Shown here piece by piece: positions 1-3,976 of a DNA stretch of 64,000 nt (position 1 is the first letter of the stretch; the number at the start of each line of letters is the position of its first letter). Source of the DNA: a phage. The stretch lies in sequence record PX915678.1. One strand, given 5' to 3'. A program made the translations under genes and the position numbers. Below the pieces are notes generated by a model. It had not been told where the DNA came from. It searched no databases and saw only the letters and a program-made list of their open reading frames with translations.

Positions 1-3000
1 CTGGGTTTTGCTAAAGGCGGTAGCATTGACGGGAATGTTATTCATATAGGAAACTATAATCAAACTGGTGATTATACTTTAAATGGCACCTTCACTCAGA
101 CAGGTAATTTTAATTTAATCGGTATTGCTCGAGTAACTCGCGATATTATTGCCGCCGGGCAGATTATGACCGAAGGCGGAGAACTTATTACAAAAAGTTC
201 AGGTACATCACATGTTCGTTTTTTCGATAGCAATAGCCGCGAACGCGGAATCATTTATTCACCGGCTAATGATGGATTAACTACACAAGTACTTAATATC
301 AGGGTTCAAGACTACGCCGCTGGTAGCGAAAGCACTTATGCATTTTCAGGCAATGGCCTATTTACTTCACCTGAAGTATCAGCATGGAAATCTATGTCAA
401 CTCCTCAGATTTTGACCGATAAAGTTATTACAGATGGGAAGAAGACAGGCGATTATGACATCTATTCATTAGCAAATAACACTCCATTGGCAGAAAGCGA
501 AACGGCTATTAACCACCTCCGTGTTATGCGAAATGCCGTAGGATCTGGTATATTCCACGAAGTTAAAGATAATGACGGGATAACCTGGTACGCCGGTGAC
601 GGATTGGAGGCCTATCTTTGGTCGTTTACCTGGTCCGGTGGATTGAAAGCAGGCCATTCTGTTTCTATAGGTCTTCCAGGTGGCCCTAAAGGATATTCTG
701 AATTAGGAACAGCTTCAATTGCCCTCGGCGATAATGATACCGGATTTAAATGGCATCAAGATGGGTATTTCCATACAGTAAACAACGGAACAAAAACTTT
801 CATTTACGGTCCTGCGGAAACACAAAGCCTTAGAAAAATGGTTATGGGTTATTCTCCGGATGGTATTCTCATGACAACGCCACCGACAGAAAACTATGCT
901 CTTGCTACTGTCGTAACATATCATGATAATAATGCGTTTGGAGATGGCCAGACTCTTTTAGGTTATTATCAAGGCGGTAATTATCATCACTATTTCCGCG
1001 GTAAAGGTGTCACAAACATTAATACTCATGGCGGTTTGTTAGTTACTCCTGGTAATATTGACGTTATTGGCGGTTCTGTTAATATAGATGGTAGAAATAA
1101 TTCTTCTACATTGATGTTTAGAGGTAACACGACTGGTAATAGTTCAGTTGATAATATGACAATTTCCGTATGGGGTAACACGTTTACTAATCCTAGTGTA
1201 GGTAATCGTAAAAATGTCATGGAAATTTCTGACGCAACTAGTTGGATGAGCTATATTCAAAGACTTACTACCGGTGAAGTAGAAATGAACGTTAACGGTT
1301 CATTTGAATCATCTGGTGTTACTGCTGGAAATAGAGGAGTTCACACAACAGGTGAAATTTCATCTGGGGCCGTGAATGCGCTTCGCATTTGGAACGCAGA
1401 TTATGGTGCCATTTTCCGTCGTTCAGAAAACAGTCTTCATATTATTCCAACTGCCTATGGTGAAGGCAAAAATGGCGATATCGGTCCACTTCGTCCATTT
1501 AGTATGTCTTTAGATACAGGTAAGGTCGTTATTCCTGATTTAGATTTAAGTTATGCTTCTTTTGCCGCAAATGGTTATATTAAATTCGGCGGTCATGGAG
1601 CGGGCGCGGGTGGTTATGATATTCAGTATGTTCAAGCAGCTCCTGTTTTCCAGGAAATTGATGATGATGCTATAAGTAAATATTATCCTATTGTTAAACA
1701 GAAGTTTTTAAACGGTAAAGCTGTTTGGTCTTTAGGCACTGAAATTAATTCCGGGACTTTTGTTTTACATCATTTAAAAGAAGATGGTTCACAAGGCCAT
1801 ACATCAAGATTTAATGCTGACGGTACAGTTAATTTCCCTGATAATGTTCAGGTTGGCGGTGGTGAAGCTACTATTGCTCGAAATGGTAATATCTGGTCTG
1901 ATATTTGGAAATCGTTTACTTCAGCAGGAGACACTACAAATATTCGTGATGCAATAGCTACTCGTGTTTCTAAAGAAGGCGATACGATGACCGGTAAGTT
2001 GACTTTATCTGCTGGAAATGATGCCCTTGTTTTAACTGCAGGCGCGGGTGCTTCATCGCACATCCGTAGTGATGTAGGTGGTACAGGTAACTGGTATATA
2101 GGCAAAGGCGGCGGCGATAATGGTCTAGGTTTTTATAGTTACATTACACAAGGCGGTGTATACATAACAAATAACGGCGAAATATCGCTTTCTCCTCAAG
2201 GTCAAGGAACATTTAATTTTAATAGAGACCGCCTTCATATAAACGGTACACAATGGGTTGCGCATCAGGCCGGCGATTGGGGAAATCAATGGCGCCAGGA
2301 AGCTCCCGTATTTGTGGATTTTGGCTACGTCGGTAATGATAGTTATTATCCTATTATTAAAGGAAAATCTGTTATTACGAATGAAGGATACGTATCTGGT
2401 GTTGATTTCGGTATGCGCCGTATCACTAATAACTGGGCGCAAGGTATTATCCGTGTAGGTAATCAGGAAAACGGTTCTGACCCACAAGCTATCTTCGAAT
2501 TCCATCATAATGGAAACATGTACGTTCCTGACATGGTTAAAGCTGGAGTAAGAATATCAGCTGGTGGAGGTGACCCTGTATGGACAGGCGCATGTGTTGT
2601 TATTGGTGATAATGATACTGGTTTAGTCCATGGCGGTGATGGCCGAATCAATATGGTTGCCAATGGTGTTCATATTGCTTCATGGTCATCTGCTTATCAT
2701 CTCCATGAAGGTCTTTGGGATACTACTGGTGCTTTGTGGACTGAGCAAGGAAGAGCTATTATTTCTTTTGGTCATTTAATCCAACAGAGTGATGCATATT
2801 CAACGTTTGTCCGTGATGTTTATGTCCGTTCTGATATTCGCGTTAAAAAAGACCTCGTTAAATTTGAAAATGCTTCTCAGAAGCTTTCTAAAATTAACGG
2901 TTACACTTATATGCAGAAGCGAGGCCTGGATGAGGAAGGTAATCAGAAATGGGAACCTAACGCCGGTTTAATTGCTCAAGAAGTTCAAGCTATTTTACCA

Positions 3001-3165
3001 GAATTAGTTGAAGGTGACCCTGATGGTGAAGCTTTACTTCGTTTGAACTATAACGGTGTAATTGGTTTAAATACAGCTGCAATCAATGAGCATACCGCAG
3101 AAATTGCAGAACTTAAATCAGAAATCGAAGAACTTAAAGCATTAGTTAAATCATTGTTAAAATAA
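1..3165 (+). CDS. 37: Long tail fibre distal subunit gp37, 5'-truncated at window edge; C-terminal ~110 aa resemble an intramolecular-chaperone autoprocessing domain
   Basis: Frame 1 is open from nt 1 into track ORF 166..3165; Gly/Asn/Thr-rich fibre-like sequence; C-terminal motif [17 protein letters not shown] followed by coiled coil; followed by gene 38 and t. Confidence 0.8.
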
Positions 3166-3169
3166 TAAG

Positions 3170-3185
3170 AGGGGCTTCGGCCCCT
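3170..3185 (+). other. GC-rich stem-loop with UUCG tetraloop (GGGGC-UUCG-GCCCC) between gene 37 stop and gene 38 ribosome-binding site
   Basis: Perfect 5-bp GC stem with ttcg loop at 3171..3184; immediately followed by GGAGG and ATG of gene 38. Confidence 0.4.
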
Positions 3186-3196
3186 TGGAGGTTTAT

Positions 3197-3976
3197 ATGG
3201 CAGTAACAGGACCGTGGGTAGGATCGTCTGCAGTAGTTAATACAGGACAAAATTGGATGGGTGGTGCGGCCCAACGATTAAGAATGGGCATTCCGTTCTG
3301 GATGAGTAATATGATAGGTCGATCTGTTGAAGTAATTCACACGCTTGGAGCAGACCATAACTTCAATGGTCAATGGTTCCGAGATAGATGTTTTGAGGCA
3401 GGTAGTGCACCTATAGTGTTTAATATCACTGGAGATTTAGTATCATATTCTAGAGATGTTCCTTTATTCTTCATGTACGGAGATACACCGAATGAATATG
3501 TTCAACTGAACATACACGGCGTAACGATGTATGGTCGTGGTGGGAATGGTTGGGCCGCTGGTGCAATTGGAGCATCTGATGGCGGTGTATGTATCCAGAA
3601 TGATATAGGTGGACGTCTGCGAATTAATAATGGCGGAGCTATTGCCGGTGGCGGCGGTGGCGGCGGTGGTTATTCACAAGCCAACAACTGGGCGGGAAAA
3701 TATGTTTGTGGTGGCGGTGGCGGTCGTCCATTCGGCTTAGGCGGAAATAATGGTGCTCGATGGCCTGGTGGTAATGCTAGTTTGACGTCTCCGGGTGCTG
3801 GCGGTAATACTGGTACAGGGTATTATGCAGGTGGCGGTGGTGAAGTTGGTCAACCTGGTCAATATGCTAATCCAGGTTCTGGTTATTCAACACCTCCGAC
3901 AAATCCTGGTGCTGCTGTAGCAGGATCAGCTCCAACATGGCAGAATGTTGGAGCAATATATGGTTCAAGAGTATAA
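3197..3976 (+). CDS. 38: Receptor-recognising adhesin gp38 (T2/T6 type, glycine-rich)
   Basis: ATG at 3197 preceded by GGAGG (track start 3185 is TTG); conserved N-terminus ...[34 protein letters not shown]...; poly-Gly motifs; position directly after gene 37. Confidence 0.8.
3640..3850 (+). repeat. Glycine-rich motif repeats (GGY/GGC codon runs) inside gene 38, separating variable segments
   Basis: Runs ggtggcggcggtggcggcggtggt (about 3647..3670), gtggcggtggcggt (about 3711..3724) and ggtggcggtggt (about 3831..3842), encoding GGGGGGGG / GGGGG / GGGG. Confidence 0.6.

Follow-up and report, generated by a model that had tools for sequence, protein, structure and literature searches.

The window (the whole 64,000-nucleotide stretch of phage DNA analysed, sequence record PX915678.1) begins within a pair of tail fibre genes, 37 and 38, which lie on the + strand in the order 37-38-t, as in the Escherichia phage PP01. 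Known Tequatrovirus genomes match every part of the window at 96-98% identity. The identities of the two genes and their domain content are directly established: both open reading frames carry Pfam matches whose E-values place them far beyond chance, and the gp37/gp38 host-range module proposed in the initial annotation is present. Features of the locus are collected in Table 1.

Table 1. Coordinates of the gene 37-38 features in the window, with the evidence for each
Feature	Position (nt)	Strand	Evidence or value
Gene 37, long tail fibre distal subunit	1..3165	+	ORF and translation; gp37 annotated at the same place in Sfk20, PP01 and KNP5
gp34-like trimerisation domain in gp37 shaft, window-aa 401-501	1201..1503	+	Pfam PF21446 Gp34_trimer, E 4.3e-8
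Distal tip of gp37 after the predicted cleavage, window-aa 863-943	2587..2829	+	phmmer match to 6F45_A residues 25-92
Predicted gp37 autocleavage motif DVYVR^SDIRVKK	2815..2850	+	aligned with S16 site DLNVS^SDRRIKK; T2 NVYIR-SDIRLKS
gp37 C-terminal intramolecular chaperone (IMC), 111 aa	2830..3162	+	Pfam Peptidase_S74, E 2.2e-12
C(UUCG)G tetraloop hairpin between gene 37 stops (TAATAA) and gene 38 ribosome-binding site	3169..3186	+	sequence
Gene 38, tail-fibre tip adhesin (predicted monomer), 259 aa	3197..3976	+	Pfam GP38, 4e-72, and Gp38_N, 1.3e-21
gp38 N-terminal attachment domain, aa 1-40	3197..3316	+	Pfam Gp38_N, full length
gp38 receptor-binding domain (RBD), aa 41-259: beta-helix and polyglycine-II sandwich (predicted fold)	3317..3973	+	PDB 9V85
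Receptor loop A, W119-I124	3551..3568	+	mean entropy 2.07 bits
Receptor loop B, Q161-V170	3677..3706	+	entropy 2.62 bits
Receptor loop C, N184-W189	3746..3763	+	entropy 2.49 bits
Receptor loop D, N204-Y209	3806..3823	+	entropy 2.48 bits
Receptor loop E, N225-S231	3869..3889	+	carries residue 228

Gene 37 and its C-terminal chaperone

The window edge cuts off the 5' end of gene 37. Frame 1 is open from the first nucleotide, 1054 codons lie inside the window ahead of the stop at 3163-3165, and comparison with gp37 of the Shigella phage Sfk20 (Tequatrovirus pss1; 1103 aa) places 49 N-terminal codons outside it. The two gp37 proteins are 98-100% identical apart from one patch, window-aa 756-866, in which 28 amino-acid substitutions are bunched; this patch is recombination-like, the window being partly nearer to PP01. 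The tip and IMC of the two proteins are identical, and DNA identity over the 4.7-kb region is 98.1%. Divergence from PP01 gp37 is wider (92 substitutions along the protein, among them those of a divergent block, window-aa 400-456).

The trimerisation domain of the shaft also matches the PDB gp34 chains 4UXE and 5NXF (E about 1e-11). The distal tip is homologous to the beta-helix of gp37 of the Salmonella phage S16 that bears the gp38 docking surface (PMC6851490), and the whole phmmer match of gp37 to the S16 gp37 construct (6F45_A, from the gp37(3)-gp38 structure PDB 6F45) has an E-value of 3.5e-43.

The suggestion that the C-terminus of gp37 resembles an intramolecular chaperone or autoprocessing domain is borne out. 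Peptidase_S74 (PF13884), a domain common across phage fibres, is matched with 47.5 bits (cut-off 22) over profile positions 1-57 of 58 (window-aa 944-1003 of 1054); the 17-residue motif quoted in the initial annotation (window-aa 987-1003, nt 2959-3009) falls inside this match, and the domain ends in a heptad-like helix of 23 residues (nt 3094-3162). Compared on its own with the PDB, the IMC matches S16 6F45_A (E 1.5e-34) and, weakly, the MYRF ICA domain 7DC3 (E 0.02) and the phage fibre 8JOV (E 0.04); because these other matches are weak, the assignment rests on the Pfam profile and S16. The match to the autoprocessing domain of endosialidases, T5 pb1 and MYRF (PF13884, MEROPS S74) lies above the curated threshold, and the features in common are a Ser-x4-Lys dyad that opens the domain and a helical segment at the C-terminus. 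Those domains release a tailspike or a transcription factor, whereas the domain of the window would template a thin beta-helical fibre, and a separate adhesin would then cap the end thereby exposed.

Alignment of the putative cleavage motif with that of S16, where site and 113-residue IMC have been described (PMC7917993), is a direct observation, and the motif is conserved in PP01 (in which it is identical, the IMC being one residue apart), Sfk20, T2 and six further phages. The predicted cut lies between nt 2829 and 2830, that is, between Arg943 and Ser944 in window numbering and R992 and S993 of the full protein. The putative catalytic dyad is contained in S944-D-I-R-V-K949 (Ser first in the domain, Lys five residues on), and the Ser...Lys (+5) arrangement is kept in endosialidases and MYRF (S578/K583; PMC3742443). 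The gp37 proteins of T2 and T6, which likewise end in Peptidase_S74, are cut and then capped by gp38 (PMC3157838). By likeness to S16, T2 and T6, autoproteolytic release of the IMC would follow trimerisation: gp37 would fold into a trimeric beta-helical fibre on the template of its own C-terminal chaperone, and the Ser944/Lys949 dyad would then cut the Arg943-Ser944 bond, freeing the chaperone and baring a hydrophobic docking surface. (Cleavage, 3:1 capping and the OmpC receptor discussed below are all carried over from S16, T2 and PP01.)

It is very unlikely that the Peptidase_S74-like tail is inactive, or stays on as a structural part of the virion. Cleavage in this phage is a prediction from sequence, and the residue ahead of the scissile bond is Arg here versus Ser in S16, which leaves some room for such a tail. 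On the other hand, both residues of the Ser and Lys(+5) dyad are present, the R^SDIR context recurs in T2, where processing of gp37 is established, fPS phages are likewise predicted to cut at R^S (PMC7917993), and a retained chaperone would block the gp38 docking surface (PMC7917993). What cleavage would remove is the 111-residue chaperone domain and not a receptor-binding tip; the autoprocessing part of the earlier proposal of "removal of the gp37 tip" holds and its wording as to the part removed does not.

Gene 38: an adhesin with a conserved scaffold and variable loops

Gene 38 starts at ATG 3197, preceded by GGAGG at 3187-3191, and the same start is annotated in Sfk20, PP01 and KNP5. (TTG 3185 was discarded as a start, being merely the mechanical first start codon of the ORF list.) The protein matches GP38 (PF05268) with 243 bits over the entire profile (1-218 of 218) and Gp38_N (PF21721) with 76.7 bits, also over the entire profile (1-40 of 40; cut-off 25 in both cases). 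Its PDB matches are 9V85 (E 4e-143), the crystal structure of the PP01 gp38 RBD, and 6F45_D (E 1e-52).

In T4, gp38 is an assembly chaperone, and the C-terminus of gp37 itself would read the receptor. Transfer of that arrangement to the window is suggested only by gene position, between 37 and t, and by some database records that still call homologues "assembly catalyst". There is no detectable similarity to T4 gp38 (best BLASTP E = 18, over 26 residues), which itself matches no Pfam family, whereas the gp38 of the window matches adhesin families over their full length as well as adhesin crystal structures. The companion proteins differ correspondingly: T4 gp37 has a Collar domain and fibre repeats in place of Peptidase_S74, while gp37 of the window has none of the Collar/needle tip domains of T4, its C-terminus being a chaperone that is predicted to be removable. 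At the level of sequence the T4-type role for gp38 is already refuted, and its probability is negligible; the initial annotation had also classed the protein as an adhesin, with a conserved N-terminal attachment domain.

Three tryptophans of that attachment domain, W7, W20 and W35, are invariant in comparison with PP01, Sfk20 and T2, and align with W7, W20 and W36 of S16, in which their role has been analysed and in which monomeric gp38 caps the gp37 trimer (PMC6851490). One gp38 would cap the gp37 surface in the same way, its three-helix N-terminal domain placing W7, W20 and W35 into three symmetry-related pockets. The attachment domain differs from that of PP01 by eight substitutions (residues 4-19), and T2-type attachment domains carry a 2-residue insertion (MAVVGVPGW); T2 gp37 and PP01 gp38 are reported to be functionally incompatible. 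The likeness to S16 extends to the three-domain plan of gp38 (Trp-tipped helical attachment domain, beta-helix and polyglycine-II sandwich), to the autocleaving IMC of gp37 and to alignment of the cleavage motif and of the G8 run of gp38. The S16 adhesin is clearly related yet far more divergent, and its five loops all differ in sequence and some in length.

Near-identity of the RBD to a solved structure is likewise a direct observation: a single substitution in 219 residues separates it from 9V85, and a polyglycine-II sandwich fold is predicted on this basis. Glycine makes up 24% of gp38 overall and 33% past residue 110, with runs at G151-158, G172-176 and G212-215. Variability was profiled as column entropy (in bits) over 119 gp38 homologues, with loop limits taken from the PP01 study (PMC12892980) and residue numbering verified on gp38 of the window. 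The observed pattern is one of five hypervariable loops (2.07-2.62 bits) set against conserved glycine motifs (0.59-0.82 bits), at least 80% Gly being found in the columns of G151-157 and G172-176. The segments between the Gly runs, singled out earlier as variable and likely to determine specificity, correspond to receptor loops A-E of the PP01 crystal structure. The C-terminal beta-helix and polyglycine-II sandwich can be thought of as a scaffold formed by the glycine motifs, on which loops A-E would constitute the receptor-binding face.

Adhesin subtype, receptor and residue 228

The "T2/T6-type" label of the initial annotation is apt for architecture and not for specificity. Architecture, glycine-rich motifs and a C-terminal WQNVG..IYG motif are shared with these classical (Henning-group) gp38 proteins, but identity is 50% with T2 and 60% with T6 gp38, compared with 97% for PP01, and the T2 and T6 hypervariable loops are unrelated in sequence. 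Receptors also differ, those of T2 being FadL and OmpF. T6-like adhesins use Tsx (PMC3157838). By sequence the adhesin is of the PP01/AR1 subtype: it shares one 90%-identity cluster with PP01 gp38, and residues 41-259, including all five receptor loops, are equal to those of PP01 in length and sequence save A228S. An identical gp38 (100%) is found in Sfk20, and 82 phage records carry a gp38 of 90% identity or more.

PP01 uses OmpC of E. coli O157, with which its gp38 makes contact through loops D and E (PMC12892980); in loop D, a cross-link joins G208 to OmpC loop 5, and Y209 is indispensable. Since the RBD is the PP01 domain with one change, the porin OmpC is the most likely, and the expected, receptor of the phage of the window, and loop E would enter the cleft between OmpC loops 5 and 7. 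Taken as a whole, the locus very probably encodes the distal, host-recognising part of the long tail fibre in a T4-like phage (Tequatrovirus) whose fibre architecture is of the T2 style; gp37 would be autocleaved and capped by gp38, with OmpC the most likely receptor. Tail-fibre tip adhesin modules of this ordinary, well-studied kind have been under study since the 1980s, and the feature is already known. Its weight as a discovery is small: the identical gp38 of Sfk20 is already in GenBank, and the RBD is one residue removed from a domain whose crystal structure has been published and whose OmpC interface has been mapped. The practical value lies in prediction, in that the phage can be assigned to a small OmpC-binding gp38 group without experiments.

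The sole difference from the crystallised domain is codon 228 (TCT, nt 3878-3880), which specifies Ser in place of the Ala of PP01. Loop E has residue 228 at its tip, and this is the most variable position within the PP01/AR1 subtype (A/S/V/N/H). The loop-E tip is functionally critical in PP01 (PMC12892980): Ala228 has been proposed to make a hydrophobic contact, infection is lost with A228D or a deletion but not with Val or Leu, and that study reports nothing on Ser at this position. With the only change at this proposed contact, preference among OmpC alleles may therefore differ from that of PP01.

A larger shift is conceivable, in which the same architecture serves a receptor that is not OmpC or not OmpC alone (another porin, LPS, or a particular OmpC allele of Shigella outside the range of PP01), brought about by A228S or by other fibre components. 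The sensitivity and polymorphism of the loop-E tip lend themselves to such a shift, and a single gp38 substitution can widen receptor use in other T-even phages (PMC3157838). Ser228 is found in Sfk20, pSs-1 and sb2, all isolated on Shigella, and the host range of Sfk20 took in Shigella and, weakly, Salmonella, with no infection of any E. coli strain tested. However, 218 of the 219 RBD residues are those of an OmpC-binding domain, Ser is small and not a charged substitution of the kind that abolished function, and the Shigella T-even relatives Sf22 and KRT47 need OmpC. A clean association of residue 228 with host was rejected, since Ser228 occurs also in the E. coli phage ECp13 and Ala228 in the Shigella phage KNP5. 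The frequency of Ser228 among Shigella isolates is only suggestive of host association, and O-antigen and post-adsorption factors also shape host range. Such a shift is judged unlikely.

With OmpC retained as the preferred receptor, the A/S/V/N/H polymorphism could be a one-residue switch tuning recognition of OmpC alleles, and Ser228 the mark of a Shigella-adapted PP01 adhesin; this is put forward as a tentative possibility. The alleles at stake, were it true, would be OmpC of E. coli O157, of Shigella flexneri or sonnei, and of Salmonella. In any case, the single change relative to PP01 picks out a natural variant, at residue 228, of possible use where host range is to be engineered from E. 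coli O157 to Shigella or the reverse.

Transcription signals and the intercistronic hairpin

No tRNA genes and no Rfam families at gathering score were found in the window, and a scan of nt 1-4800 for sigma-70 promoters and terminators gave chance-level counts (17 vs 15.5 and 4 vs 3.1, respectively). The exact late promoter sequence TATAAATA is absent from nt 1-4100, where only AATAAATA at 3981-3988, ahead of t, comes close. With no internal late promoter, transcription of genes 37 and 38 probably starts at upstream promoters, outside the window. The hairpin between the two genes is not a canonical terminator on the + strand, where a T-run is absent. Its core is GGGGC-UUCG-GCCCC (3171-3184), and in a 56-nt context it folds with -17.8 kcal/mol (z = -2.3).

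Gene order and the type of gp38

Three genes in a row occupy the + strand of window positions 1-4663 (Table): gene 37, for the distal subunit of the long tail fiber, gene 38, for the fiber-tip adhesin, and t, the holin gene. The initial annotation placed a T2/T6-type host-range module at 1-3976; gene 37 is present there but cut by the window edge, its start in Sfk20 lying 147 nt further upstream, with 49 of 1103 codons outside (gp37 residues are numbered here from the edge). The gene 38 ATG is the annotated start in Sfk20, PP01, KNP5 and others; TTG 3185, mechanical output of an ORF tool, is rejected. 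Across the half of gene 38 that encodes the glycine-rich part, G+C climbs to 0.47-0.50, as expected from GGN codons. The order 37-38-t-asiA-arn-motA-52-rIIA/B ... 43-46-41-nrdD-nrdC across the window is the usual Tequatrovirus one; no tRNA genes were found anywhere in 1-64000, nor any Rfam family at gathering threshold.

Table. Features of the tail fiber module and its surroundings
Feature	Position	Strand	Basis or remark
Gene 37	frame 1 open from nt 1; TAATAA double stop 3163-3168	+	ORF
gp34-like trimerization domain in gp37	aa 401-501 (nt 1201-1503)	+	Pfam PF21446; PDB 4UXE, 5NXF, E about 1e-11
Patch of differences from Sfk20 gp37	aa 756-866 (nt 2266-2598)	+	28 amino-acid differences
gp37 residue 936	nt 2806-2808		before cleavage site
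Predicted gp37 cut	Arg943/Ser944 (nt 2829|2830)		alignment to S16
Peptidase_S74 in gp37	aa 944-1003		E 2.2e-12, 47.5 bits (cut-off 22)
17-residue motif in gp37	aa 987-1003		within Peptidase_S74
C(UUCG)G hairpin	3169-3186	+	GGGGC-UUCG-GCCCC
Gene 38	ATG 3197; 259 aa	+	31-nt spacer after gene 37; GGAGG at 3187-3191
gp38 N-terminal type	aa 4-19 (nt 3206-3253)
gp38 codon 228	nt 3878-3880		TCT (Ser)
Late-promoter-like box	3981-3988	+	AATAAATA
Gene t	4007-4663	+	Pfam Phage_holin_T, E 2e-117
asiA	4664-4936	-	convergent
Terminator-like hairpin	4706-4738	+	14 bp, T-rich tail

Gp38 matches Pfam GP38 over the entire profile (E 4e-72) and Gp38_N at all 40 positions (E 1.3e-21), and is 24% glycine (33% beyond residue 110), including glycine runs of 8, 5 and 4 residues. 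The T4 gp38 chaperone matches no Pfam family and has no BLASTP similarity to it (best E = 18). The adhesin type initially proposed is thus borne out: neither full-length alignment to the T4 chaperone nor loss of the adhesin N-terminal domain is seen. Moreover, the C-terminus of T4 gp37 is made of a Collar domain plus fiber repeats and lacks Peptidase_S74, which T2 gp37 possesses; together with the gp38 comparison, this shows the module to be of T2-style and not of T4-style architecture.

"T2/T6-type" is therefore right for architecture, but not for the specificity domain, which, to judge from sequence, is of the PP01/AR1 (OmpC) subtype: identity of gp38 is 97% to PP01, 60% to T6 and 50% to T2, and a single 90%-identity cluster of 92 sequences holds the window and PP01 proteins. 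(Sfk20 gp38 is 100% identical.) In the PDB the window protein matches 9V85, the GFP-fused receptor-binding domain of PP01 gp38 (E 4e-143), with one difference across crystallized residues 41-259; S16 gp38 (6F45_D) is matched full length (E 1e-52). Among gp38 adhesins, OmpC binding is known for no more than a small group (PMC12032242).

Six members of the PP01-type cluster (P0002, P0124, P0126, P0127, P0131, P0134) combine a T2-like attachment domain (MAVVGVPGWIG..., altered to about residue 47) with an unchanged receptor-binding domain. The attachment domain is swapped as a module in this cluster, which fits the reported incompatibility of T2 gp37 with PP01 gp38. One 303-residue chain from an E. 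coli assembly (P0084) is annotated with Peptidase_S74, Gp38_N and GP38; it would be a gp37 tail-gp38 fusion, and a gene-calling error on a fragmentary contig, or read-through, is the probable explanation.

The C-terminus of gp37

The Peptidase_S74 ("chaperone of endosialidase") domain of gp37 contains the motif on which the initial annotation based its chaperone-like or autoprocessing end, and a heptad-patterned helix follows at the extreme terminus; that reading holds. The S16 gp37 construct 6F45_A aligns with the final 192 residues (E 3.5e-43) and with the final 119 alone (E 1.5e-34). The S16 protein is reported to end in a 113-residue intramolecular chaperone that, after trimerization, cuts itself off at the serine pair of DLNVS^SDRRIKK, its release exposing the gp38 docking surface (PMC7917993). 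Alignment of DVYVR^SDIRVKK with this motif predicts a released domain of 111 residues in the window phage. The context VY[IV]R-SDIR is common to T2, PP01, Sfk20, KNP5, ECp13, pSs-1, sb2, Sf23 and AR1, and the spacing of Ser944 and Lys949 is that of the catalytic Ser/Lys dyad of endosialidases and MYRF (PMC3742443). (In a weak MYRF match, 7DC3, the crystallized chain has Ala at the position aligned to Ser944.) C-terminal cleavage of gp37 followed by gp38 capping is established for T2 and T6 (PMC3157838, citing Drexler et al. 1986). By analogy with these homologues, gp37 would be processed likewise here; what was called removal of the "tip" would be loss of the chaperone domain.

The observed module, a gp37 chaperone end with a glycine-rich gp38, is confirmed far beyond chance. 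It lies wholly within a known system, with no departure from it, and the finding is accordingly already known.

Receptor loops and residue 228

PP01 uses OmpC; its gp38 loops are A (119-124), B (161-170), C (184-189), D (204-209) and E (225-231), G208 and Y230 cross-link to OmpC loops 5 and 7, respectively, and loop E is proposed to enter the cleft between these (PMC12892980). PP01 numbering carries over one-to-one. Column entropy, on window numbering across 119 full-length gp38 homologues from the protein search, averages 2.07-2.62 bits in the five loops, as against 0.59-0.82 in the flanking glycine motifs, in agreement with the variable segments initially noted between glycine runs; mean entropy is 0.81 bits in the beta-helix and 1.18 in the attachment domain. 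Henning's group and Trojet et al. described this same pattern, in which glycine-rich motifs are conserved and other segments hypervariable, and the polyglycine-II sandwich now accounts for it structurally.

Position 228, at the loop E tip (Ala in PP01), is the most variable site among PP01/AR1-subtype members. PP01 retains infectivity with Val or Leu there and loses it with Asp or deletion; Ser is not reported (PMC12892980). Ser is found in the window, Sfk20, pSs-1, sb2 and ECp13, Ala in PP01, AR1, KNP5, EC121 and NBEco003, Val in sb4, Asn in Sf23 and KMB42, and His in two proteins from E. coli assemblies. Sfk20 infects S. flexneri 1b, 2a and 3a, S. sonnei, S. dysenteriae 1 and, weakly, Salmonella, and none of the E. 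coli strains tested. The association with host is suggestive but not clean, since ECp13, an E. coli phage, has Ser and KNP5, a Shigella phage, has Ala; a role for residue 228 in tuning the range of OmpC alleles is of modest probability.

Mosaicism and transcript signals

The 4.7-kb region is matched by 608 phage records, with 98.1% identity to Sfk20 and 90-96% to many E. coli and Shigella Tequatroviruses (96-98% to known phages for the rest of the window). Its sole local peculiarity is the patch of differences from Sfk20 gp37, outside which the proteins are 98-100% identical. Several patch positions agree with PP01, and the patch resembles a short recombined segment of the distal shaft, ordinary tail-fiber mosaicism. 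Residue 936 of gp37 tracks the gp38 N-terminal type in 9/9 phages (Phe with the window type, Tyr with the PP01, sb2 and Sf23 variants), which may reflect either co-variation at the interface or mere linkage. The homologue of the gp34 C-terminal trimerization domain inside gp37 indicates that proximal and distal fiber subunits share modules; it overlaps residues 400-456, the block where the window and PP01 gp37 proteins are least alike.

Hairpins of the C(UUCG)G kind are known in T4 intercistronic regions. A very stable one separates the gene 37 double stop from the gene 38 Shine-Dalgarno sequence, with no U-run after it on the + strand; it may protect the 3' side of mRNA or affect gene 38 translation. 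The box that precedes the t start codon by 19 nt has one mismatch to the T4 late-promoter box TATAAATA. Exact copies of the latter number 2 in 64 kb, as against about 10 expected from shuffles, which suggests avoidance of the motif in a region made up largely of early genes. Just beyond the t stop, the terminator-like hairpin, which falls in the 3' end of asiA, could serve to terminate the late 37-38-t transcript.
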